Source: Candidatus Heimdallarchaeota archaeon (GTDB taxonomy: Archaea; Asgardarchaeota; Heimdallarchaeia; Heimdallarchaeales; Heimdallarchaeaceae). Taken from it: a stretch of DNA of 64,000 nucleotides. The stretch spans positions 2,571 through 66,570 of the forward strand of contig DAOVET010000002.1 of the NCBI GenBank assembly GCA_030668825.1, written 5' to 3'. Every line of letters starts with the position of its first letter. Position 1 is the stretch's first letter. Under the pieces are notes generated by a model. The model was not told the DNA's origin, did not search any database, and worked only from the letters and a program-made list of their open reading frames with translations. This document shows, one piece after another, positions 2-55,221 of the stretch. Made by a program: the position numbers and the translations under genes.

Positions 2-820
2 GGGAGAAATGTAACCTATGTTGGACCTTCATCAACATTTTTTGAGAAATTGATAAAAGATAATGGCATACAAATTCAGATAAAAGCTATACAAAATGCA
101 GAGGTCAATTATACTACAATTCTGAATCTTCAAGATGGTGAAGTACAGTTCAATTCAATTCAAGGAAAACTCTCGTTAGAAAGTTTATCTGAAGAGATTA
201 TTAAATACTACAGAAAAAGTCCTTTGAAACCTATAAGTAATGTATCACTGAATCCTACTTCTATTGAATGGGTAAGCTTTCTTCTCCTAAGTTTAGAGGA
301 TGAAGCTATATTAGATTCACTTGAAGATAGCACTAATCCTCTTGGTATGATCTCTTCCTGTTCTGGAGCATCATATGAAGGAATTATTTTTGTTGACCCT
401 TCAGATATTTCTCATTTTGAAAGAATTGATGAATTTTGTAAAATATTAGTACAATTGAAGAAATTCGAAGGAGAAAAATATCTATCTGTAAATGAATATG
501 AATTAGCTGTTCTAAGTAAGCATTTCTCAAAATCCCCAAGGAAACTAGCAAGTTTTCTTGATGTTCCTATTATTCTGCACACATCTGATAATGTTTCTTT
601 TTATGGAAAAGAAGTAATCAACTTAAAAACAAAGAATCTTGAAGGTAAAGTGAAATTTGTTGGAGCAGGAGACTGCTTTAACGGAGCTTTTATTCATTCA
701 ATATTAGATTCTCACCCTATAACAGACTCTTTAAGCTATGCAATAGAGGCTGCTTCATATCTAATAGAAACTGGAAAATACCCAAATGCATTACATATCT
801 CAAAAAGAATAAATAGCTAA
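2..820 (+). CDS. PfkB/ribokinase-family carbohydrate kinase, 5'-partial (reading frame is open to the window edge)
   Basis: C-terminal PfkB signature 'KFVGAGDCFNGAFIHSIL' (GAGD anion hole). The in-frame translation continues upstream of the annotated TTG to position 2 with no stop. The rest of the protein is divergent. Confidence 0.45.
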   Translation, partial: GRNVTYVGPSSTFFEKLIKDNGIQIQIKAIQNAEVNYTTILNLQDGEVQFNSIQGKLSLESLSEEIIKYYRKSPLKPISNVSLNPTSIEWVSFLLLSLEDEAILDSLEDSTNPLGMISSCSGASYEGIIFVDPSDISHFERIDEFCKILVQLKKFEGEKYLSVNEYELAVLSKHFSKSPRKLASFLDVPIILHTSDNVSFYGKEVINLKTKNLEGKVKFVGAGDCFNGAFIHSILDSHPITDSLSYAIEAASYLIETGKYPNALHISKRINS

Positions 821-42528: not shown

Positions 42529-42699
42529 GACAAAGACTTCCATTAGGTGAGTTAAGCTGTTTTTTCTCTAAAACCTTGAATCTGAAAAGAATGGGGTTTT
42601 TTGTCGCGTTTTAACCTCTCAACAAAGATTACAAAAAAGTTTAAATATGTTCAAGGACAATTTTACTTGGTTAATGGCAGGCTATTTAGGAGCCAAATG

Positions 42700-43020
42700 G
42701 TTAGGTCAAAAAGGGACTGCAAACTGAACAGGAAGAGATATCCGATGCTCAGGGACAAGGTTGAACCCCTTTTTAGATGGTTTGAACCCCCATTTGGGCT
42801 TAGTTAAGACCTCCTAAGCCTGAAATCCCCCAGAACCAGACTTCGGTCTGGAATCAGACACTTATTTTGTCTGAAAAAAAAGGACCAGACATCTTCTGTC
42901 TGCCAGAAAGGTATGGTCTTGCTTGACCAGATCCTGGAACCCCCCTCAACCAAAACCCCGAAGCATCGAGTTAGAATAGCCTTCCTGTTCAGGCAGAAAA
43001 CCCTTTAGGGTTTCTTAACC
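42700..43020. ncRNA. GC-rich (about 45% against a roughly 31% background) hairpin-dense noncoding island; candidate structured RNA of unknown class
   Basis: At least six hairpins: GGCTTAG/CTAAGCC (42797-42820); CCAGAC-UUCG-GTCTGG (42836-42851); CAGACA/TGTCTG (42855-42873 and 42886-42902); TGGTC/GACCA (42914-42929); AAACCC-TTTA-GGGTTT plus T-run (42998-43013). Repeated 'GAACCCC' and 'CCAGA' words. The strand is undetermined. Confidence 0.3.
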
Positions 43021-43100
43021 TCTTTTCCTTTTAATTTCTGTTCATTGATTTTTTGTGTTTTTTTTGTGTTTTTAAGCTATATTGCAATAATAATATCATT

Positions 43101-45278
43101 ATGAAAAATTCAGATGCAAATATAGACCTTAGTAAGCTTCTAAATGATTCATACATAAGTGATCAATTCAATAACCTAGCTAAAGAAAAGAAGAAATTTA
43201 TTGAAGAGTTGACAGATGAGGAAAAGAAGATTTATACTGAAACTATATCTTATATTTTCACAGAAGAAAAATCTGATGCTAAAGTGTCTCGTAGTTTTGC
43301 AGAACCCTTTCAGGTGACATGGAGAAAAATACACTGCCAAAAAGATTTCTTGCGCACTGCTATTTTACCCAAAATCACAAAAGATGTTCTTGTTAAGGGT
43401 TTTCCTACAAGAATAGGAAGCCACCCTGGGTTTGATGATGTCTTCTTAGGAGTTGATTCCAAAGGAAAATTTGTCTTTGGAGTATTTGAACTGAAAACAA
43501 ACAAGATTGGAAGTACTTCCCATAGACTCGATAAAGGAACCGAAGCAAGCAAATTGATAGCATTTAATTTGCGAAAAATGAGTACTAAATTTGTTGAAAA
43601 ACTAGTTCTTGATGGTGTGGATTTGAAAAAGGCTCAACGTATTGGAAACGCTCTATTTAATAGATTCAGAATGTCAGCAACTGCAATCGGTTTTGATTTT
43701 CAAAGAAAAGTATCAAGTATGGATATTGTTAAACTATTCCATAATTATTTTGATATACAGCTTATAAATAAAATTCTTGAAGCTGCAATTAAACAAAATC
43801 AGCTAATATCTTTAATAAAAACCTGCTATGCTTTCAAGAAGGAAATCAAAAACAAATATGTTACTGTTGTTAAAGATAAAACTACTGATGTCACAAATCT
43901 AATCAATCTAAATTACAAATACAAAAAAGGTAAAAAAATTGAAATTCCTATCAGTGGTGATTTCTTTAGGATTGATTATGATTTACATACCAAGGAGTTT
44001 AAATTTCCGCAGTTTTCTAGCTCTGCTTTAGGTGTTACTACTTTATCATTTGAGCAGAAAAGAGCTTATTTCAGTTTGAATAAACTAATTAGAAAAGCAC
44101 TGAAGAAAGTTGAGCTATCAATTGTGGATGAAAGTGGGGAATTATTGCAAACAAATGAAATAATTAAAAGATTAAATTCAATGCAATCATTTGTGTATAA
44201 AGCACTGATTAAATCAAGAGTTTTTGATGATTTTCAGGTTTTTCATAAAGGTACAATGTTTTTCTTTCTTGAAACTTTATCAAGTGAGAGTAATGAGAAG
44301 AAAATATCTAGATATTTGAAGAATTATTCAAGCTATAAAGGAATAGCTAATTATCATTATCATCAAAAATGGATAGTTCCTTCTATTTTAGACTTAGGTA
44401 TTTTTGTGGGAAATTTAAAAGAAGAAAATGAAAACTCGCGTAAATTCAGATTATTTCTGTATAAACATCTACTTGATGGAAGTTCTACTGATACAAAAGA
44501 TATGGATATTGAAGAGATTGAAGAGCTTATAACCTCAAATTCTGAATTAAGAGATTATCTTATTGGAAATTTCAGACGTGATATAAGATTACCTGATGGT
44601 TATTTCTGGACTCAAGCAATAAATTCCACACACTTGAAGAAAGCTTTGGTATTTTGTAATGTAAGAGATAGCAAACCCAAAAAGATGTATGGTTGTAATT
44701 TATATACAAGCTATGATTTTCAATACCTTCTAAAGGATTTGGAACTCGATTCCATACTCCTTCAAAATCCTATTACATTTGGAATTAATGAAGGTAGGTT
44801 AGTAGCAGATTTCAATACAGATAGGAATGTTAAGATTGCAAAAGTATGGATAGAATTTTTATCAGAAACCACAGATATTCCAAAGAATACACTACAAAGA
44901 CTCAATACTCATCTAGGACCTGGTGGTGGGATAGATCTATTATATCCACAAACTAACTGTGAATTACTCAGAATGTTGGTTGTAATTCTATTAAAATTCC
45001 AAGAAAATTGGGACAAATTAACATTATACATTATTCAAGAAATAAAAACAAAACAAGTACAATGGGAAATTGAAACTTTAAAAAAGAACAACCCTGTTAT
45101 ATTTGTTAACAAAAGGAATCAAATAACAATTAATGGTGAAGAAGCAATCATAAGATTAGGAACATTAGATGGAACTAATTGGAGAACAACAAGACCATTA
45201 TACTGTTTAGCAAACAGCTCTTGTTGGTTTAATAATATCATCTCTATCTTCAAGAGAGCATACCAAGAAATTATTTAA
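43101..45278 (+). CDS. large hypothetical protein (725 aa) with N-terminal Hjc-like PD-(D/E)xK nuclease core
   Basis: 'HPGFDDVFLGVDSKGKFVFGVFELKTNK' parallels the Hjc motif 'PDIIALKSG-VIILIEMKSRK'. The remaining roughly 570 aa are unrecognised. The track ORF starts at 43053. Confidence 0.5.
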   Translation: MKNSDANIDLSKLLNDSYISDQFNNLAKEKKKFIEELTDEEKKIYTETISYIFTEEKSDAKVSRSFAEPFQVTWRKIHCQKDFLRTAILPKITKDVLVKGFPTRIGSHPGFDDVFLGVDSKGKFVFGVFELKTNKIGSTSHRLDKGTEASKLIAFNLRKMSTKFVEKLVLDGVDLKKAQRIGNALFNRFRMSATAIGFDFQRKVSSMDIVKLFHNYFDIQLINKILEAAIKQNQLISLIKTCYAFKKEIKNKYVTVVKDKTTDVTNLINLNYKYKKGKKIEIPISGDFFRIDYDLHTKEFKFPQFSSSALGVTTLSFEQKRAYFSLNKLIRKALKKVELSIVDESGELLQTNEIIKRLNSMQSFVYKALIKSRVFDDFQVFHKGTMFFFLETLSSESNEKKISRYLKNYSSYKGIANYHYHQKWIVPSILDLGIFVGNLKEENENSRKFRLFLYKHLLDGSSTDTKDMDIEEIEELITSNSELRDYLIGNFRRDIRLPDGYFWTQAINSTHLKKALVFCNVRDSKPKKMYGCNLYTSYDFQYLLKDLELDSILLQNPITFGINEGRLVADFNTDRNVKIAKVWIEFLSETTDIPKNTLQRLNTHLGPGGGIDLLYPQTNCELLRMLVVILLKFQENWDKLTLYIIQEIKTKQVQWEIETLKKNNPVIFVNKRNQITINGEEAIIRLGTLDGTNWRTTRPLYCLANSSCWFNNIISIFKRAYQEII

Positions 45279-46431
45279 CATAATTTGGTTCTTCCCCCTT
45301 ATCTTCTAGATCTTGTTGTTCAGTTGGATATACTGTCTTTCTTGACGATTTCACTATTTTACTAAAAACTCTATAACTACCAATAGAAACCAAGATAATT
45401 GAGAGAATGATGAGAGCTTTCAGCATAATGTCAAGCCAGAGATTTAAGGAGTGTTTCTGAACATCTTCAGGATTTAACACCAACATGAAATTAGAAGGGT
45501 AAAACTCATAGAGAGTGCTTAAAACCAACAATAATACTATCCTTAGTGTAAAGAATATTGTTATTATCAAAGCTGTTCTTCCTACAACCCACAATGACGG
45601 ATACTTTTCTTTGTTTAAAACTCCCCTTATAGAATTGGATTTTCCTCTTATTTTCCTATAATGGTAATAGATTGAACTTGTATATTCTACATTAGGGTTT
45701 TTCGATAATTTTCTCTGCACTCCGAAAATAAATTGAATAACATGATAAGAAAACCCAGCAAGAGCTATATAAAAACAACCTATTGAAAAATAGTGGAAAA
45801 TGTCATAGAGTAAACACCAAGTGTAAGAAATTAACTGTGGAAAATAGAAGTAAGGATTAGTATATAAGAAACTAAACATAAAAACCGAAATGAGAAGAAA
45901 AATTATTTTCCTCACAAACATGTTATCGTCATTATAACTGTGAGCTAGTCTGTTTCCTACTCTATTCTCAATTTCTGTTACTTCACGTGACATCTTATTA
46001 TAACCAATAATATTAAACAGGGCTAAACCTACAAACACACCAATAGTTAATGCCCAATTAATCTCAAATGGATTGGAACGAGTAAAGTCGAAATATTCTG
46101 TAAAATTTATTGAAGTAGATTCATCATAGAACAGTAAAAACAACTTATTAGATGAGTTAATGTATTGATTTAGGAGTTTAATCACCAAAAGAGTATCAAC
46201 TAATACACTAAGACCCCTACGAATTCGACAATTTTCAGTTATCTCAAAATCATTAATCGTCACTTCAAAACCAATGATTTTTGGTAATTTCTTTAGTTCT
46301 ACGTGAACTTCTTTGTAATCTTCTAGAACTTCTATATTTTCAATAATTATGTCCTCTACAGATCCTTGAGCTGTTTTAGTATTTAGGAATATAATAACGA
46401 ATAAGAGAGTAATCAACAAGCATCTTTTCAT
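45271..46431 (-). CDS. polytopic membrane protein (signal peptide plus about 6 TM helices)
   Basis: 'MKRCLLITLLFVIIFLNTKTAQG' and multiple hydrophobic helices. Its 3' end overlaps the 43101-45278 gene by 8 nt (convergent). Confidence 0.45.
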   Translation of the reverse strand: MKRCLLITLLFVIIFLNTKTAQGSVEDIIIENIEVLEDYKEVHVELKKLPKIIGFEVTINDFEITENCRIRRGLSVLVDTLLVIKLLNQYINSSNKLFLLFYDESTSINFTEYFDFTRSNPFEINWALTIGVFVGLALFNIIGYNKMSREVTEIENRVGNRLAHSYNDDNMFVRKIIFLLISVFMFSFLYTNPYFYFPQLISYTWCLLYDIFHYFSIGCFYIALAGFSYHVIQFIFGVQRKLSKNPNVEYTSSIYYHYRKIRGKSNSIRGVLNKEKYPSLWVVGRTALIITIFFTLRIVLLLVLSTLYEFYPSNFMLVLNPEDVQKHSLNLWLDIMLKALIILSIILVSIGSYRVFSKIVKSSRKTVYPTEQQDLEDKGEEPNYVK

Positions 46432-46546
46432 TATATATTTATAGAAAAAAGTGCATATATACACCACAAAAATATCTTACAAAAATATTCGATATGGAGG
46501 GAAACTTTAAAGTATTAACTTGAGAATTAGAGGGTTAAGATGATGA

Positions 46547-47041
46547 AGAATTCTTGTAGACAATCAAGAAATTCTTCATTATACTGAAAATCAACTGGCT
46601 GATTACAGATGTAAAACTGTAGGTTTAATCTATCAGTCTTACAATTTAGCGCAGTTCTTGACTGTCAAAGAAAATATAGAGTTTCCAATGTTATTGGCAA
46701 AAACACCACTAGAAAAAAGAGAAAAACGTATTGAAGAGCTAACAGAATTTCTAGAAATTAGTAGATACATTGAGCAAAAACCTGAATTCTTGAGTGGAGG
46801 GGAACAACAACGAGTTGCGATTGCTATTGCCTTAGCAAATAATCCTCCAATAATATTAGCTGATGAGCCTACAGGTAATATTGATGTAGAAACAGCAGAA
46901 ACAGTTTACACCAATTTATCTCATATGTGCCAAATCTATAACACAACTCTTGTGATAGCCTCACATGATCCAAAAGCCTCAGAATATACAGAAAGAGAGG
47001 TAATTCTAACAGAATTAGAATCCAATAAGATAAGAAGGTGA
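46547..47041 (+). pseudogene. 5'-truncated ABC transporter ATP-binding protein (MacB/LolD-like), lacking Walker A
   Basis: The frame opens after a TGA at 46544-46546 and reads '[47 protein letters not shown]...[32 protein letters not shown]...SHD'. Q-loop, signature, Walker B and H-loop are present. There is no P-loop and no ATG. Confidence 0.55.
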
Positions 47042-47195
47042 AAATTAGTAGAAGAAAGAAACTTATCGAATATAGAAAAGCCTGTGATGATTTATGTAAA
47101 TTTAATGGAGCTAGCTATGTTCCTTTAAATTGAAGGTGAGTTATAATGATATGTAAATACGAATTATTCACTTTTTTGTTTTTGAATTATGGAAC

Positions 47196-48611
47196 TTAAA
47201 AATATTTTTCTAGTTTCTTAGTAGAGAGAACCAGTACAATTAAAGAAATTGAAATGGTGCTGTATCTCTTCTGAGATTTAGAATTCAAATCAGAAGTAAA
47301 ACGAAGACTATATCTGTTCAAATTAAAAAAATCTATTTCTGATATTGGAATACGATAATAGTAAATAGAACTTGGTCCCCAAGTAGCAGAAGTTTTTTTA
47401 CTCCTATCAAAACTAGACCAAGCAAAATGGAAATAGTTTTCACTTAGATCGCAGTGAGCGTAAAATTCATTGTATTTTGATGTACTTGTTAATTGAACTT
47501 CCTCAAAACTCTCTCCATCGTATTTACCCAAGAATATGTCCATTTGATCACTATTGTTTAAGAAAGTTCTTCGTGTATATACAAAACGAAAAGTGCCATC
47601 TTCAAGAACGCAAATAGAGTCATCATAAAAAATCATGTTACCATAAAAGCTGACTATTTCTTGAGTAGTAGAATAAGTAGAGTTGAAAACTTTTGTAAGA
47701 AAAAGACGACTGATATTAGTTTCATGGCCACTTTCATAATAAAATACATTGAATGTGTTATCAGAAGGAATTATAGCTATAGAATATTGGGGAGGATTAC
47801 CTATTCCCAATTTATAAAGTTCCCAACCGTTTTCTGGCCAATTAATAGCTAAATAAGGATGCATATTGTTTTCATTTATATAGTTCCCCCATAGCAAAGC
47901 TATAGTAGAATTCACAACTTTGAAATCGCCAGGAGCTACTGAAAAATCATCAACGATTTCGGGTAACACCGTATGCATGAATATACCCTTGTTTTCTGTG
48001 CCATTGTAGATAACAGGTGTTTGAACACCAACGGTACTTCCATTTATTTGAAAAAGCTGATGCGTGATGAATGCAAACACAGCATCTCCAGAACCAGAAA
48101 ATAGCCAGTTTAAAACAGGTTTTCTCACACCTACGCTACAATTGTAGGGCACATTTTCTAGAGCTGGATGTTCCTCCCAGGTATTATTGATTACTGTTAA
48201 AACCTCCCCTAGATCGTTTTCATATCCAGTTGTTGCATAAATATAAATAAAAGGTCTTTTTTGTGGGTCTAATCCAATTCTTATTTGAAAAAAAGTACCT
48301 AAAACCATCGAATTAAATCTTGGAATGAAAGCTATAGTGTCTTCCTTGAGATTTAATCTGGTATAGATCAAGTCTATGTCGTCTCCGATATCAGATGTAG
48401 CATTAGAGAAACAGAAATGGGTTATGTTATCATTTTCTACAACCATGTCTGATAGAATACTTGCATTCCATAAAGCATTGGGATAAACATATTTATCAGT
48501 AATTGGTTTCTTTGGTTGTTCGATAACTAGGTAATATATAGGTAAAGCAATCGCAAGGCTAATACTTATTAAAATCCCTATTGAAATAACAATTCTCAGA
48601 TACTTTTGCAT
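47196..48611 (-). CDS. secreted protein (471 aa) with N-terminal TM/signal and hydrophobic C-terminus
   Basis: 'MQKYLRIVISIGILISISLAIALPIYYLVI'. C-terminus 'ISISLIVLVLSTKKLEKYF'. Many N-x-S/T sequons. Confidence 0.45.
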   Translation of the reverse strand: MQKYLRIVISIGILISISLAIALPIYYLVIEQPKKPITDKYVYPNALWNASILSDMVVENDNITHFCFSNATSDIGDDIDLIYTRLNLKEDTIAFIPRFNSMVLGTFFQIRIGLDPQKRPFIYIYATTGYENDLGEVLTVINNTWEEHPALENVPYNCSVGVRKPVLNWLFSGSGDAVFAFITHQLFQINGSTVGVQTPVIYNGTENKGIFMHTVLPEIVDDFSVAPGDFKVVNSTIALLWGNYINENNMHPYLAINWPENGWELYKLGIGNPPQYSIAIIPSDNTFNVFYYESGHETNISRLFLTKVFNSTYSTTQEIVSFYGNMIFYDDSICVLEDGTFRFVYTRRTFLNNSDQMDIFLGKYDGESFEEVQLTSTSKYNEFYAHCDLSENYFHFAWSSFDRSKKTSATWGPSSIYYYRIPISEIDFFNLNRYSLRFTSDLNSKSQKRYSTISISLIVLVLSTKKLEKYF

Positions 48612-48818
48612 TAGCTCACCTAATAGTCGTTCAATACATCTTATATAGCTTTTCTCGCATTCTACAGTTTGCCTTATATTAAAATTTCAAGATTATAAGT
48701 ATTATTTAGAGATTCTCTTTTAATTTGGAAATGTTTCAATACTCAACAAATCACTTTTAAATTTATAATCCTATCAGTATTGTTTGGAGATGATGATTTT
48801 ACAAGCACAAAAATTGTG

Positions 48819-50483
48819 CTATATCTTGCTTTTTCTTTTCGAACTAAATTTGAAATAACCAAATACAGCTAGTGGGATTAGTACAACTAAAGAAAGAAAC
48901 GAGTAGTAAATGTTATTATTTCTATAGATTGGAGGTTCAGAAAGAGGATAAAGGTCTTGTGCATTTGCAAATCCATCTATATAATAGCTTCCCACTACAA
49001 CAAAATAGTCAGTCCAGTAATTCCCTTCTTCTGATTCTTCATCGTACCAAATATTATTTACACCATCGTCTTTAGCTTGAGCAGTGTTAAAATATTGATT
49101 ATTTTCTATGAAAGAATTATGATGTATTGAATTATTCCTTGAGTATAAATCCAGAACTACTCCCCATAGAAGGTTTTCACTTAAAAAATTGTAACTAAGT
49201 TCATTTTTGGAAGAGCTTTCTAGAACTATACCTGCAAAATTTGAGTTACACGTATTATTGATGATCGCCATTCCTATGGAACCATAAGTATAGATTCCGA
49301 GATTCCAATTATCAGAGCAAAAATTGTTTTGAATTGTTCCTTTAATACAATAACGTAGGGTTATACCTGTATGAGTATAGGATAGGTTTTGGTTCAATAT
49401 TTGAATATTGGAACAATCTGCAAGAATTAACTGACCGTAAATAGGTTGGGTAATTTTTAGATCATCTAAACCCACAAAATAACCAAATTCTTTGTCATTA
49501 ACCGAATTATTTTGGACAATGTAGGAGTGATAGTCTTCTCTGTTTAGTTCATAGAATTCGAAACCACTTCTATACAGAGCATTGTTAGTTATTTTTGACT
49601 CCTCAGCATCGATTAAGTATATCCCAATTCCATTACCAGAACAAATATTATTGTCAACTGTTACATTCCCCCCATTTACTATGACAATCCCCATACCAGA
49701 GCAATGGTTGTTTGAAACAAAAGAATCATTGGATTCATAAAGCGCTATATTAGTCTGGCTATTATCTGTGCACAAGTTATTTACTACAGTTGATTTGTTG
49801 GATTGAGATAAACTTATGCCCCCATGGTAAGTATTTTCATAACATCTATTATCAGCTACGTACGATAAAGGTGATTCTTCCACAACAATCCCTCCCATAC
49901 TATTTGAATTGCAAGTGTTATTATTAATCAAACACGCTTCACTTAGGTCTACAAATATCCCTAACCAACCATCCTGAATACACCGATTGTTTTCAATTTG
50001 TGATTCAGAAGAGTTCCCAACATGAATACCAACAAAGCTATTATAGTTGCAAGTATTGTTAATTATTTTCGTGCCTGGTGAATGATTGATTCGAATGCCT
50101 GTTGCAGAATTTCCCACACAAATGTTGTCTTCTATTATAGTTGTTTCTTTCCTTACAGAATCTATAACTATACCGCCCCTATAAGCATCTACAAAACAAT
50201 TCTGAATTTTAAAATATTTAGTCGTATTATGGATATAGATTCCTTTATCCTCAGAGGTTGTTATGTTCAAATTTTCAATCCTGAAAGGTTCTTGAGGAGT
50301 CCCAGTACCTAATAATCCATAATCTGTGAAATTTGAATCATTTGTTATTATAATTGGTAATGAGTCTAAGTAAGAAAAAGAATAGGGATAAGTAGTACTT
50401 TCTGAAACAATTATATTCTGAACAGTAATCTCAGTTGAGCTTATTAATATAACTAAAATAAACATTTGATATAATTTATTCAT
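48819..50483 (-). CDS. secreted right-handed parallel beta-helix (PbH1) repeat protein with C-terminal TM plus basic tail
   Basis: Signal 'MNKLYQMFILVILISS'. Repeated 'NNxCxxNxxxGIxxxxS' beta-helix units. C-terminus 'FLSLVVLIPLAVFGYFKFSSKRKSKI'. Confidence 0.6.
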   Translation of the reverse strand: MNKLYQMFILVILISSTEITVQNIIVSESTTYPYSFSYLDSLPIIITNDSNFTDYGLLGTGTPQEPFRIENLNITTSEDKGIYIHNTTKYFKIQNCFVDAYRGGIVIDSVRKETTIIEDNICVGNSATGIRINHSPGTKIINNTCNYNSFVGIHVGNSSESQIENNRCIQDGWLGIFVDLSEACLINNNTCNSNSMGGIVVEESPLSYVADNRCYENTYHGGISLSQSNKSTVVNNLCTDNSQTNIALYESNDSFVSNNHCSGMGIVIVNGGNVTVDNNICSGNGIGIYLIDAEESKITNNALYRSGFEFYELNREDYHSYIVQNNSVNDKEFGYFVGLDDLKITQPIYGQLILADCSNIQILNQNLSYTHTGITLRYCIKGTIQNNFCSDNWNLGIYTYGSIGMAIINNTCNSNFAGIVLESSSKNELSYNFLSENLLWGVVLDLYSRNNSIHHNSFIENNQYFNTAQAKDDGVNNIWYDEESEEGNYWTDYFVVVGSYYIDGFANAQDLYPLSEPPIYRNNNIYYSFLSLVVLIPLAVFGYFKFSSKRKSKI

Positions 50484-50511
50484 TGTATACTTATCCCCTT
50501 TGTTATTTTAT

Positions 50512-50769
50512 TTATTGTGGTGTGATGCCCTCTATTGATAAACAGAATCCATTTCCATAATCATTCCATCTTGTTGGAGTTTGGTTTGCGTTGTAGTAAT
50601 TAACTGACCCTACATAATGATTATACCACCACCATGCATCTATGAAAATATAATCGAAATCTGCAGTTATTGAACCTGCATATCCATGTTCAGAAGGATT
50701 TCCATTCCAAGAATAGTGCAGAAAACCCTTTGGGGTTTCAACTTTTCTTAACTTTTCTTTGTTTTTCAT
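50512..50769 (-). CDS. small Trp/Tyr-rich hypothetical protein (85 aa)
   Basis: ORF 28 nt upstream of the PbH1 gene, 'DAWWWYNHYVGSVNYYNANQTPTRWNDYGNGF'. Confidence 0.3.
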   Translation of the reverse strand: MKNKEKLRKVETPKGFLHYSWNGNPSEHGYAGSITADFDYIFIDAWWWYNHYVGSVNYYNANQTPTRWNDYGNGFCLSIEGITPQ

Positions 50770-50922
50770 GAGTTTTTTTGATGTTTCACTTGTTCCATAA
50801 TTCTCTGAAAAAAAACTAAAATCTAGAAAATATTATTCTTGTTATTAGAAATTAGGTTTATGGCCTTTTTGTATAAATATTTATAGCTAAAACTAGTCAT
50901 TTATGTTTAAGGAGTGTTTTAA

Positions 50923-51729
50923 ATGGAAGAAGAATCTAAAGATGATTTACTAGAAGAAGCTGAAGAGGAGCTTAGTGAAGAAGTAAAGGAAGAACTCAAA
51001 GAAGAGCTTGAGGAGGAAGTAGAAGAGTTCAGTGAAGAAGAAAAAGAAGATCTCGAAGAAGAACTCGAAGAAGAACCTGAGGAAGAAATAGATGAGCTTG
51101 TAGAGGAACTTGAAGAAATTGCAGAAGATGAAGACGAAATAGAAGAGATCGAAGAAGAAGCAGTTGAAGAAGTAGTAGAAGAAGCTGTAGAGGATGTTGT
51201 CGAAGAAATTCTTGATGAAATAGATGAAGAAGTAGAAGAAGAGGTTCTTGAAGATATTGTGGAAGAAGTGGTTGAAGAAGCTGAAGATGAAGCTGAGGAA
51301 GTGCAAATTGTTTCTGAACCAGAATATAAATCTGAACCTGCGCCAGAAGGGATTCCAGAAGATATCAAGAAATTAGGTGGTAACATCCAAATTATTTTGA
51401 AAGATGTCGATGGTGATTTGATTCCATTTGGGTATCATTTACAGAAAGACAAACTAATTATCAAAGAAGATGAAGCAATGAAAGTTAAAATTGTGTTATC
51501 ATGGTTATACAAACAAAATAGGAGCGTAGAAGAGATTTCTGATGCCACAAAACTAAGCATCGAAGAGATTGAAAAAATACTCATAAATCCTTTATACTTC
51601 GGTAAGATTTACTTCGAAGGAGCACTTGTGAAAGGCAATCATGAACCCATATTAACTGAAAGATATTGCAAATTAAATGAAATAAATACTGATGAAATTG
51701 AGGAAAAATATCTTTCCACAAAGAAATAA
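50923..51729 (+). CDS. polyacidic (Glu-rich) protein with C-terminal serine-recombinase 'recombinase' domain and no resolvase catalytic domain
   Basis: The first approximately 130 aa are EExEEEL repeats. The C-terminus 'MKVKIVLSWLYKQNRSVEEISDATKLSIEEIEKILINPLYFGKIYFEGALVKGNHEPILTERYCKLNE' matches the large serine recombinase pattern (iL.NP.Y.G......G.HepIi..e.f..vq). Confidence 0.5.
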   Translation: MEEESKDDLLEEAEEELSEEVKEELKEELEEEVEEFSEEEKEDLEEELEEEPEEEIDELVEELEEIAEDEDEIEEIEEEAVEEVVEEAVEDVVEEILDEIDEEVEEEVLEDIVEEVVEEAEDEAEEVQIVSEPEYKSEPAPEGIPEDIKKLGGNIQIILKDVDGDLIPFGYHLQKDKLIIKEDEAMKVKIVLSWLYKQNRSVEEISDATKLSIEEIEKILINPLYFGKIYFEGALVKGNHEPILTERYCKLNEINTDEIEEKYLSTKK

Positions 51730-51840
51730 GATTAAGGAAATTTATGTGCGGAAGTCTTACTTCCTATTCCTTTTTTAATTGTACTTTTTAATTCTCAATT
51801 TTCGTACTTTTTCTTATTAGAATACACAGTTAAATTCTTT

Positions 51841-52158
51841 TTAGCTAATTCCTTCAGCTAATAAATCCCCAATTGTGTCAGCAGTCATACTAAAAAAGGA
51901 GATGAGATCCTCCTTTGAATGCAAGAGTTCATACAGATTTTTCATCGGTAAATCTTGTCCTTCATCATCAACAAAAACAATTTCATACCCTAAACCTTTC
52001 CCTAGGTTGCTTTGTTCTCTTAACCATTCTCTCTGTTCTTCAAAGAAATTCTGTAGAAATTCTTTAACATTGATTATATTACTTAACTTGTATCTAGTCA
52101 ATTCAAGTTTTTTCTCACTTTCTTCAGCATAGATTTTGAATACCATTTTCCATGTCAA
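51841..52158 (-). CDS. hypothetical protein (105 aa)
   Basis: ORF only. Confidence 0.3.
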   Translation of the reverse strand: MTWKMVFKIYAEESEKKLELTRYKLSNIINVKEFLQNFFEEQREWLREQSNLGKGLGYEIVFVDDEGQDLPMKNLYELLHSKEDLISFFSMTADTIGDLLAEGIS

Positions 52159-52341
52159 GTTTTACACCTTAGTTGTTTTCAACTACTAATGCTACATTTG
52201 ATATATAAACCGATGAATTACTTTCTCGTGCTTAAATATGAATCTACGCTGAATCGCTTATTGTAGCGTTTTTTCTGAACCAAAAACTATAAGTTTTTAA
52301 ACGTGCTTTCGACCACTAAAGTAGACAAGAAAGGTGATTAA

Positions 52342-52524
52342 ATGGGTCACGGATCGCTCCAAAAAGCAGGTAAAGTTAGAAAGCAAACTCCCAAAGTTGA
52401 AGGAAAAGAAAGACACAGTCCTATTCCCAGAAGGGGTCTAAGAAACAAATATGTTAAACGTGTTATTCTTGGTCGTTACGCTGGTCAAGCTCAGAGCATG
52501 GGAGCTAAACGTCGTTCCAGATAA
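52342..52524 (+). CDS. rps30e: ribosomal protein S30e
   Basis: 'GSLQKAGKVRKQTPKVEGKERHSPIPRRGLRNKYVKRV' matches the eukaryotic/archaeal S30e core (GSLARAGKVRGQTPKV..KEKKK..GRAKRR.QYNRRF). Confidence 0.8.
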   Translation: MGHGSLQKAGKVRKQTPKVEGKERHSPIPRRGLRNKYVKRVILGRYAGQAQSMGAKRRSR

Positions 52525-54228: not shown

Positions 54229-55221
54229 ATGTCTCAAAGCAATCGTTTAGCAATTCTATCTGATGTAGAACAAATTTTCCATACTAATGGATATAGTATT
54301 GCTAAATTATCTCAAGGAAGTAAAGCCTGTTTTGATATTATTGCTAAAAAAAGAGACCAGCTTATTATTATCAAAGTTGAACCCTATATTGATAATTTCA
54401 ACCGTGACAATTCTTTTGAACTAAAGAACATTGCAACCTTTCTTAATGCATCTCCTTTAATTATAGGTGAGCGAGGAAGACGTTTTTCAGAAATTGATGA
54501 TGGCTTAGTTTTACTAAGGTATGGTATTCCTGTTGTTAGTAGTGAAACTTTTACCAATCTAATTTCTCATGGAGTACCTCCAATTATATATTGTAGTAAA
54601 GGTGGATATTTTGTTCAAATTAACAGAAAAATACTCCGTCAAGCAAGACTGGAAAAAAATCTGAGTTATGCAGATTTAGCACATCTTGTGGGAGTTTCTA
54701 GAAGAACAATTTACGAATATGAGCATTCCATAAACCCAACTCCTTCAACAGCAGCAAAACTGGAAGAAATATTAGATTCCCCGGTAGCACAAGGAATCAA
54801 AATCTTCAATATTGACATTGAGAAAGAAACAAGACCACAATATTCAACTGAAAATCTTTCGAATTTTAAGGAGGAAATATCTGGAATTCTTGAAGAATTG
54901 GGCTTTTTTACTCAATTTTGGACTCGTCAATCTCCTTTTGATGCTTTTGGAGAGCAACAAAACCTAGATATTCATAGTGGGATGAACATTCTAGTCTGTG
55001 TAGACGATCTTCAACAAAAGAATATAGCTGAACGCGCAATTCTTACCCAAGATATAGCTACTTTGACTAAAAGAAGAGCAATAATGATTGTTGAAGACTC
55101 TGATAACCCTCTAACTCAAAACATACCAACTTTTACTGTAGATGAACTTAATCAGATGAAGAAAGCTTTTGATTTAGTTAAAAATTGGGTTAAAAAATAT
55201 TCGAATATAAAAGAAAGTTAA
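54229..55221 (+). CDS. HTH (XRE-type) transcriptional regulator with N-terminal domain (COG1395-like)
   Basis: 'LRQARLEKNLSYADLAHLVGVSRRTIYEYEH' is an XRE helix-turn-helix. The track ORF starts at 54193. Confidence 0.55.
   Translation: MSQSNRLAILSDVEQIFHTNGYSIAKLSQGSKACFDIIAKKRDQLIIIKVEPYIDNFNRDNSFELKNIATFLNASPLIIGERGRRFSEIDDGLVLLRYGIPVVSSETFTNLISHGVPPIIYCSKGGYFVQINRKILRQARLEKNLSYADLAHLVGVSRRTIYEYEHSINPTPSTAAKLEEILDSPVAQGIKIFNIDIEKETRPQYSTENLSNFKEEISGILEELGFFTQFWTRQSPFDAFGEQQNLDIHSGMNILVCVDDLQQKNIAERAILTQDIATLTKRRAIMIVEDSDNPLTQNIPTFTVDELNQMKKAFDLVKNWVKKYSNIKES

Follow-up and report, generated by a model that had tools for sequence, protein, structure and literature searches.

A rare Heimdallarchaeal protein family with a conserved PD-(D/E)xK-like motif in insertions that replace the 3' ends of host genes

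Elements that carry a tyrosine integrase, such as the archaeal elements of the pNOB8/SSV type, target the 3' ends of tRNA or protein genes. In Tn7, a transposase subunit with a restriction-endonuclease fold, TnsA, is used together with the DDE protein TnsB, and insertion leaves a 5-bp target duplication. The mORFs of fungal mitochondria, found for example in Allomyces macrogynus atp6 and in the atp6, atp9, cox2 and nad3 hybrids of Glomus, are mobilized by an endonuclease (PMC3630166), and one PD-(D/E)xK enzyme, I-Ssp6803I, is listed among the homing endonuclease families (PMC3384342, PMC3943268). The present analysis concerns a 725-amino-acid (aa) protein of Candidatus Heimdallarchaeota archaeon and the small family to which it belongs; its gene lies in a 64,000-nt stretch of contig DAOVET010000002.1 (assembly GCA_030668825.1, positions 2,571 to 66,570, forward strand), referred to below as the window. 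We found no published description of this family, and a survey of mobile elements in Heimdallarchaeum, which reports tRNA-targeting elements, aloposons and a co-opted homing endonuclease, contains nothing like it (PMC8813620).

Wherever the flanks are visible, a family member lies within an insertion, and directly repeated copies of a host-gene 3' end mark its two boundaries. The family gene is the sole component common to these units, and their sole gene at two unrelated targets. The explanation that requires least is therefore a mobility enzyme; the protein would be a site-specific nuclease or recombinase of a selfish unit that replaces the 3' end of its target gene. We lean modestly towards this reading. 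Comparison of the loci (L) and proteins (P) discussed below suggests that the 725-aa protein itself, rather than another factor, would perform the cut or exchange.

Insertions at the 3' ends of unrelated genes

In four loci (L022, L010, L011 and L023), the gene for P0008 separates the genes for the two subunits of a class I fumarate hydratase. A 139-nt direct repeat in L022, 71% identical and with a spacing of 3081 nt, flanks the P0008 gene alone, and the family gene is the sole gene of this 3.1-kb unit. The first repeat copy (DR1) is the 3' end of the Fumerase_C gene, and the second (DR2) stops 4 nt before the Fumerase start codon. Both copies encode an intact C-terminus, and the differences between them are mostly synonymous. 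The nearest homologues of this Fumerase_C, at 96% identity, have the same body and a C-terminal peptide exactly as DR2 encodes it; in the occupied alleles, Fumerase_C ends with a foreign-type C-terminus, known from more distant homologues.

Two further loci, L066 and L067, are empty sites, in which Fumerase begins 4 nt past the Fumerase_C stop codon (L066 5460-5600; core ATGAATTTGGTCCTTTAACAG). Their synteny is that of L022, comprising DUF790, an SNF2 helicase, an ~335-aa protein, SIR2 and Fumerase_C, and the flanks are 93-95% identical. Over its first 38 nt (segment A), the empty site is identical to DR1 at all 38 positions and to DR2 at 30, whereas over the remaining 101 nt (segment B) it matches DR2 at 98 positions and DR1 at 69. 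The switch in L022 occurs between diagnostic positions 32 and 38, inside TTTGG, and the mosaic is reciprocal, with a native A and a foreign B in attL and a foreign A and a native B in attR. A second occupied fumarase allele, L068 (JAUWEG010000062.1, from the metagenome-assembled genome (MAG) CSMAG_2184), carries an element that has diverged to 70% aa identity. At the end of its Fumerase_C gene, segment A is of the native type (36/38) and segment B of the foreign type (95/101), and the sequence changes over between positions 38 and 44. The junctions of both alleles fall within the 11 nt of TTTGG-W-CCTTT, where the central W goes either way. The circular junction of the fumarase-targeting element is predicted to read GTAGAAGAGTTTGG(A/T)CCTTTGACTGT.

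These junctions bear on an alternative in which the protein is not a nuclease but an element-encoded factor whose conserved E/DD/ExK residues have another role, for example in replication initiation or partition of a small circular element, and insertion is left to host homologous recombination acting on the 65-292-nt target mimics. Long mimics could support a Campbell-type integration, and the fold of the protein is unverified. Against this account, two diverged elements switched within the same 11-nt window despite 139 nt of homology, the element-borne mimics are only 68-79% identical to their targets and hence poor substrates for homologous recombination, and the invariant residues of the protein show the spacing and strand positions of a PD-(D/E)xK site. 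We regard this alternative as quite improbable.

The same architecture recurs at other targets. At a structured RNA-like element located 3' of a PAC2 gene, loci L020 and L021 show the order PAC2, RNA element and P0011 gene, followed right after the stop codon by a 65-nt copy of the 3' end of the RNA element (94-95% identical). The repeats bracket a unit of ~2.35 kb, whose sole content is the P0011 gene. In L015, a second, ~95% identical copy of the 3' two-thirds of the RNA element, 165 nt long, bounds a 7.4-kb variable segment, and the first gene of that segment, beside the intact RNA element, is a family remnant. At a small-GTPase gene (L014 and L065), the repeat comprises 292 nt of the 3' end of the gene at 77% identity; the copy attached to the gene body runs into element DNA and the other copy runs into native spacer. 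For a mosaic comparison at this target, L013 is too diverged from L014 to serve as a reference. An ~333-aa charged helical protein of unassigned family is encoded convergently to the family gene or remnant at three loci of this one lineage (L013 2856-3863, L014 2608-3609 and L065 8311-9312, all on the minus strand), followed by the gene of a Rab/Arf-like small GTPase.

A tRNA-Leu gene is probably a further target. The P0006 copy in L012 is preceded, at a distance of 560 nt, by a tRNA-Leu(TAG) gene in the same orientation, and the contig ends before a second repeat would be visible. Beside the tRNA-Leu gene, a 105-nt match to a tRNA model (L012 9107-9211, minus strand), not called by ARAGORN, is probably an intron-containing tRNA. 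The family gene is co-oriented with its target and target-proximal in the window, L020, L022, L068 and L012. No terminal inverted repeats were found at the units, where the repeats are the 65-292-nt target copies, and there was no transposase match.

An exhaustive HMMER pass over 1.84 billion cluster representatives yielded seven clusters in total, and all named members come from MAGs of Candidatus Heimdallarchaeaceae. A word-indexed search of 5.8 billion proteins returned only the 725-aa protein itself and a 91% relative, and a query with the family alignment likewise returned only near-identical proteins. A metagenome scan added a single locus, L065, of an already known lineage, and a scan of a viral contig collection found no family member. 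Intact copies are represented by the window protein and P0002 (725/739 aa), P0011 (725 aa), and P0008 and its relatives (906 aa). The remaining copies are decayed: P0005 is reduced to 217 aa and P0004 to 385 aa of the C-terminal part, the latter adjoined by a second remnant of 135 aa, P0003 is the distal part of a stop-split gene with an internal deletion, and the copy in L019 has in-frame stops relative to the intact P0011. A single family protein is on record from the MAG of the window. It is important to note that all genomes are metagenome-assembled and that several loci end at contig edges; the key alleles recur in independent samples. Protein clades track targets, in that the window protein, P0002, P0011 and P0005 are associated with the RNA element, the P0008 clade with fumarase, and the clade of P0003, P0004 and L065 with the GTPase gene.

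This distribution largely refutes the view that the protein is a host housekeeping enzyme of DNA repair or junction resolution, that is, an enlarged Hjc-like resolvase. Its motif resembles the PD...hhhhE-x-K of Hjc, and the gene is under purifying selection (see below). However, a housekeeping enzyme would hardly amount to seven clusters in 1.84 billion proteins, be absent from close genomes and be truncated repeatedly; there is no Pfam match to Hjc, which is only a fifth as large as this protein. We consider a housekeeping role very improbable.

The protein and its conserved motif

The open reading frame (ORF) at 43101-45278 on the plus strand, first pointed out in a sequence-only reading of the window, is present as claimed and encodes 725 aa counted from its ATG. 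The first in-frame alternative start upstream, a TTG at 43053, would extend the product to 741 aa; the ATG is backed by the NCBI gene call (KAU62_18295, 'hypothetical protein') and by the N-terminus of the full-length homologue P0011, which is 43% identical. The same protein occurs unchanged on 20 contigs from several samples. A comparison of the window gene with its 91% relative in L001 gives a ratio of nonsynonymous to synonymous substitution rates (dN/dS) of 0.25, and the gene, which is intact, is thus under purifying selection. A candidate archaeal TATA-type promoter, TTTTAAGCTATATTG, is predicted from the sequence at 43070-43084 (plus strand), 17-31 nt 5' of the ATG. This box is also conserved in L001, and a similar sequence, TTTAAGCCATTTTG, lies upstream of the gene in L020.

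The nuclease-like string PGFDDVFLGVDSKGKFVFGVFELKTNK, which the sequence-only reading had placed around residues 120-150 and likened to the core of Hjc and restriction endonucleases, is present but occupies residues 109-135 (125-151 in the 741-aa frame). Its spacing alone carries no significance, since the loose pattern D-h...hh-[DE]-x-K occurs at least once in 43% of shuffles of the 725-aa protein. The resemblance rests instead on conservation, which that reading had proposed as a check. A comparison of five independent lineages (the window, P0011, P0008, P0006 and an upstream ORF in L013) at 23-43% identity leaves 13 invariant positions among the 77 ungapped columns of the N-terminal region: A67, E68, F70, K76, D82, R85, G110, F111, D112, D113, E130, K132 and K145. 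The E...DD...E-x-K set, and with it D112/D113, E130 and K132, is invariant in all homologues that cover the region. A sixth copy, in L068, reads AEYF...K-LH...D-x-x-R...GFDD up to the contig end. The motif by itself does not exceed chance, its invariance across five lineages does, and the evidence therefore lies in the conservation.

The PD-(D/E)xK-like core comprises residues 67-145 (43299-43535, plus strand) and holds the 13 invariant columns, of which A67-E68-x-F70, K76, D82 and R85 lie on a helix. The secondary structure in AlphaFold (AF2) models follows the order alpha-beta-beta-beta-alpha, with the long E68 helix before the strands and another helix after them. One strand begins at (G110-F111-)D112/D113, and the next ends with E130-x-K132. 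As far as sequence and model go, the residue set and spacing match a PD-(D/E)xK site, with an acidic residue on the first helix, an aspartate at a strand start and E-x-K, and the invariant motif may be read as a putative nuclease active site. The mean predicted local distance difference test score (pLDDT) is 56.6 for the full-length model (8-row alignment) and 51.8 for a model of the N-terminal 250 aa (5 rows). Two other interpretations of residues in this region were dropped. GFDD as the YxDD of reverse transcriptases lacks the motif A/B spacing and follows a helical segment, and His78, considered as the histidine of a cap-snatching-type H...PD...ExK site, is replaced by R in L013 and Q in P0011.

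Beyond the core, the best-conserved stretch is a QNQLISLIK helix motif at residues 232-240 (43794-43820, plus strand), in which Q232, L235, I236, S237 and L238 are invariant in the alignment; the motif is also present in P0007/P0011. A conserved C-terminal region, residues ~498-700 (44592-45200, plus strand), contains PDGxFW, LLQNPIxF, GRxxADFN, VWIExL and GxGxDLL, and FxxGxMxFxLET and YHQxWxxP are additional conserved motifs outside the core. Acidic residues at D499, D/E570 and D612 are conserved family-wide in the C-terminal region, where the AF2 pLDDT is 70-85; a DDE-like triad was considered for them and is backed by no fold match. A tyrosine-recombinase-like R...Y near the C-terminus was dropped, as Y701 is not conserved in P0008.

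The remainder of the protein matches nothing, as the sequence-only reading had held: the 725-aa protein gave zero matches in Pfam, PADLOC and PDB sequences, and those in NCBIfam and PHROGs were noise only. Searches with nine family members against Pfam, NCBIfam and PADLOC profiles at E values up to 10, together with a PDB profile search, led to no described family of the PD-(D/E)xK clan. There was no Pfam or NCBIfam match to Phage_integrase or Resolvase domains and no R-H-R-Y pattern in the protein, and no Pfam or PDB match to an Hjc profile. The homing-endonuclease families LAGLIDADG, GIY-YIG, HNH, His-Cys, PD-(D/E)xK and EDxHD gave no profile match, PD-(D/E)xK being represented by its motif only. 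Judged by sequence, the protein is recognized by no profile for Hjc, tyrosine or serine recombinases, transposases or defence, and the PD-(D/E)xK motif is the only one of these signatures that it bears. A standalone defence role, suggested by the earlier reading, is not supported; the PADLOC defence models have no match, the neighbours encode membrane or secreted proteins, and the genomic context suggests an enzyme that moves a selfish insertion unit instead.

The RNA-like element and the variable segment of the window

In the window, the family gene lies directly 3' of a hairpin-rich island, and this part of the sequence-only reading holds. The region 42690-43025 (plus strand) folds strongly (-116.5 kcal/mol, z = -5.5) within the 570-bp intergenic region upstream of the family gene. 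This island is the insertion target, the structured RNA-like element 3' of the PAC2 gene (42690-43030, plus strand). A scan of one genome per species found its 3' arm in ~22 Heimdall/Asgard MAGs, and bacterial matches to the arm were at the chance expectation for an 18-nt pattern. Full-length copies are present at no fewer than 17 Heimdall loci, each from its own species, directly 3' of PAC2 wherever the flank is visible, and none of these 8-kb loci encodes a family member. In alignment, invariant core blocks are split by hairpins of variable presence at fixed positions. Compensatory stem changes (CGAUGC/GCAUCG versus CGAAGU/ACUUCG) accompany a consensus structure of 62 pairs, and the element has the C-rich motif GAACCCC four times and the sequence GACCUCC in a loop. 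No Rfam family was found at gathering or permissive thresholds for the window and seven other species, and assignments as signal recognition particle RNA, RNase P, intron or riboswitch were dropped for want of an Rfam match. One locus, L056, contains at 429-604 (minus strand) a sub-threshold match to group II intron D1-D4-5 (25.6 bits, E = 0.12).

The earlier reading had remarked on the position of the gene beside this element, and the protein could in principle be an RNA-guided or RNA-scaffolded nuclease, given that its gene stands immediately 3' of the ~330-nt element on the same strand in the window, L001 and L020. We give such a functional pairing next to no credence. At least 17 species that lack the protein have the element next to PAC2, and in L015, whose backbone is syntenic with the window, it keeps the PAC2 orientation where the family remnant is inverted. 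Members at the fumarase or GTPase gene have no such element nearby, and the 3' end of the element is duplicated as an insertion scar. Since the element is kept in species without the protein, in an orientation independent of the gene, it is not a dedicated partner; from these comparisons, it is best described as an independent conserved RNA-like gene that serves as an insertion target.

The 3' end of the element is an insertion hot spot that is trailed by arrays of partial copies. L026, L036, L054, L059, L061 and L062 each have one to four partial 3'-end copies on the same strand, 0.4-3 kb apart, with unrelated small genes between them, and come from species in which the family is not represented. 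An ~225-aa signal-peptide protein with the motif YTIYTRIT.I..PP and no Pfam match recurs in the cassettes behind the element (L061 3112-3783, L050 2290-2967, L026 2674-3348 and 3483-4127, L036 4152-4829, L054 7560-8000). In the MAG of the fumarase allele L068, the PAC2-to-island region (L043, JAUWEG010000012.1) is 94% identical to that of the window. One genome may thus hold two family branches with different targets.

The insertion in the window forms a variable segment of 7.8 kb (43013-50784) with the family gene at its island-proximal edge, and the accessory character that the sequence-only reading had ascribed to this stretch is borne out by its absence from ~94% identical genomes. In two such loci, L061 and L024, identity to the window is 92-94% between 36.7 kb and 43,010-43,013, and L061 returns to this level at 51,837-52,478. 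Synteny resumes at lower identity (88% from 50,867 in L061 and 90.5% from 50,784 in L024), and where the window has 7.8 kb these loci carry unrelated segments of 1.4 and 1.7 kb. The more distant L015 ceases to be syntenic with the window at the same point. The segment includes the part of the window that is poorest in G+C (0.30-0.31 at 44-48 kb). An attL-like left repeat, the island 3' end with its tail (42993-43071, plus strand), contains the core GCAGAAAACCCTTTnGGG. The attR-like right repeat is a partial copy of the island 3' end just before the shared right flank (50718-50786, plus strand) and matches the left one on the same strand (E 5e-6). A core, GCAGAAAACCCTTTnGkG, is common to all island-derived repeats in the window and L061, and the sequences diverge beyond it; it corresponds to the terminal AAACCC-TTTN-GGGTTT hairpin of the RNA element, whose uninterrupted 3' end includes CCTTCCTGTTCAGGCAGAAAACCCTTTAGGGTTT.

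Convergent to the family gene, and overlapping it by 8 nt as the earlier reading had noted, is a gene for a membrane protein of 386-398 aa without a Pfam match (45271-46467, minus strand). It accompanies the family gene in the window lineage, including L001, and is not homologous to the gene downstream in L020. Three passengers follow. At 46658-47041 (plus strand), a C-terminal ABC-ATPase fragment, called as 117 or 163 aa depending on the assembly, covers only positions 75-136 of the 137-position ABC_tran profile; because the match starts at position 75, the N-terminal, nucleotide-binding part is missing, and it looks like a gene fragment. The others are a 471-aa protein of no assigned family (47196-48611, minus strand) and a NosD-like beta-helix protein (48819-50483, minus strand). 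No integrase or transposase is among the genes of the variable segment, and no other nucleic-acid enzyme is encoded there or in the units. The first post-segment gene in L061 corresponds to 50923-51729 (plus strand) of the window, which encodes a strongly acidic protein of 268 aa; within the gene, ~160 nt are duplicated in tandem at 66% identity. Farther along, at ~54229-55221 (plus strand), a second, unrelated PD-(D/E)xK protein, with Pfam PDDEXK_19 fused to HTH_3, is encoded beside ELP3-like radical SAM and ribosomal S30 genes, in synteny with L015.

A segment of this kind also suits a different explanation, in which the protein is a passenger, a nuclease or other factor (such as a defence or DNA-repair accessory) in cassettes that are moved by another Heimdall recombination system. 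The best support for it comes from the ~17 species in which cassettes with unrelated small secreted proteins occupy the RNA element in the absence of the family; several unrelated genes are present in the window segment as well, and the family gene can face either way with respect to the target. A passenger, however, would not be expected to make up the whole unit at two unrelated targets, nor, in so rare a family, to be found in such a unit wherever the flanks are visible. Close relatives share a target and distant ones differ, as expected if the protein sets specificity, and the units offer neither a PADLOC match nor a candidate integrase. We view the passenger explanation as doubtful, though it is the main rival.

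Proposed mechanism and relation to known systems

In the architecture seen at these loci, each unit enters its target (RNA element, fumarate hydratase beta, small GTPase and probably tRNA-Leu) at a single defined site within the 3' end. It brings a diverged copy of that 3' end, so that the host gene stays intact, and the displaced native end remains downstream as a direct repeat. If the protein is a mobility enzyme, the putative N-terminal PD-(D/E)xK-like domain (E68, D112/D113, E130 and K132) would cut the target at the junction core, which would be TTTGG-W-CCTTT in the fumarase gene or GCAGAAAACCCTTTnGGG in the RNA element, and the ~500-aa C-terminal region would supply long-site recognition and assembly. 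Two routes could lead from there to insertion. The first would be a reciprocal exchange between the target and the element-borne mimic, in the manner of a circular attP with attB; alternatively, the unit could home, the break being repaired from an occupied allele. The 38 nt of foreign sequence upstream of the attR junction and the narrow junction window shared by two diverged elements favour the exchange, whereas homing would be more natural for a PD-(D/E)xK nuclease, which is hydrolytic.

Several observations weigh against a mobility enzyme. No profile similarity to nuclease, integrase or transposase families was found in Pfam, NCBIfam, PADLOC, PHROGs or PDB; the motif region has an AF2 pLDDT below 50 in both models, which leaves the fold unverified; and fold searches with the AF2 models, C-terminal region included, returned noise only. 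PD-(D/E)xK enzymes are hydrolytic nucleases, and none is known to rejoin DNA. The attP junction predicted for the fumarase-targeting element was not found in viral or extrachromosomal contigs or in any of the loci compared here. The right-hand repeat of the window itself is short and only 75% identical, and the orientation of the family gene is not fixed, as it is inverted relative to the target in the truncated copies of L015 and L014. Repeat arrays of the RNA-element 3' end bracket other small cassettes in many Heimdall species without the family, so insertions at this site can arise without it, or predate its loss. Finally, a family of seven clusters is very small, and any generalization rests on few loci. 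The mobility-enzyme reading is supported, on the other side, by analogy with the mORFs, which have an equal architecture and an endonuclease that was shown to drive mobility (PMC3630166).

A more far-reaching version of this reading, which we consider unlikely, would make the family a new class of site-specific integrase. It would combine a restriction-endonuclease-like domain with the ~500-aa region and catalyse reciprocal exchange, within a window of ~11 bp, between the host 3' end and a 65-290-nt mimic carried by a circular element of one gene, all without a tyrosine or serine recombinase, DDE, HUH or Cas1 domain; it would also be the source, in trans or historically, of the cassette arrays behind the Heimdall RNA.

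Were the protein a mobility enzyme, the units would represent an unrecognized kind of selfish DNA in the archaea most closely related to eukaryotes, a single-gene element that moves between species, hits RNA as well as protein genes and spares the host gene by providing a new 3' end. Up to now, most documented cases of such 3'-end replacement involve the small homing endonucleases of fungal mitochondria. The branches of the family appear to recognize long, distinct sites, a property wanted in programmable or highly specific genome-insertion tools, and the empty and occupied alleles with their 11-nt junction provide a directly testable substrate. A conserved structured non-coding RNA candidate of Heimdall archaea, itself an insertion hot spot, also emerges.

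Like the mORFs, the units have the order gene core, foreign 3' end, inserted ORF (the endonuclease in mORFs) and displaced native 3' end (PMC3630166). Empty alleles are available for comparison with occupied ones (L066/L067 for L022; L061 and L024 for the window), as are the foreign and the displaced native ends. The 3'-end copies of mORFs are 64-81% identical, with mostly synonymous differences, and the native end matches close relatives; the corresponding values here are 71% and 98/101 to the empty site. In contrast, mORFs are small LAGLIDADG or GIY-YIG proteins of organelle genomes, whereas the proteins here have 725-906 aa, belong to no known family, reside in archaeal chromosomes and also target RNA genes. 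Unlike in mORFs, the first 38 nt of the right-hand repeat, upstream of the junction, are foreign too, which makes the mosaic reciprocal. I-Ssp6803I is likewise selfish and site-specific, with a motif of the restriction-endonuclease type and a site in an RNA gene, as proposed here; it is small and resides inside a group I intron, whereas the present units have no intron and PDB searches detected no similarity.

With tyrosine-integrase elements, the units share attL/attR hybrids, restoration of the target 3' end, an RNA-gene target, a pile-up of repeats and a mobility gene beside the att site. They differ in that there is no Phage_integrase or resolvase match, a unit can be a single gene, and the sole recognizable catalytic motif is nuclease-like. 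The reciprocal hybrids with a short-core crossover, seen in two alleles, speak to behaviour and not to membership of a recombinase family. The proposal resembles Tn7 with TnsA in the use of a PD-(D/E)xK nuclease for mobility and in insertion next to the 3' end of a conserved gene; unlike in Tn7, no TnsB-type DDE protein, terminal inverted repeats or 5-bp duplication was seen here. As in integron arrays, the RNA element provides a fixed site followed by small cassettes that are each bounded by a repeat copy, but there is no IntI, the repeats are copies of the RNA-element 3' end and not attC hairpins, and the family gene is one inserted unit among others. The local likeness to Hjc consists of a glutamate on the first helix, an aspartate at a strand start and hhhhE-x-K on the next strand; Hjc has ~120-140 aa and is universal in archaea, whereas the 725-aa protein is patchy, element-borne and found in Heimdallarchaeaceae only. 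The protein is not a demonstrable member of any described family, and its behaviour is already known in kind, namely the site-specific insertion of a selfish unit that restores its target.

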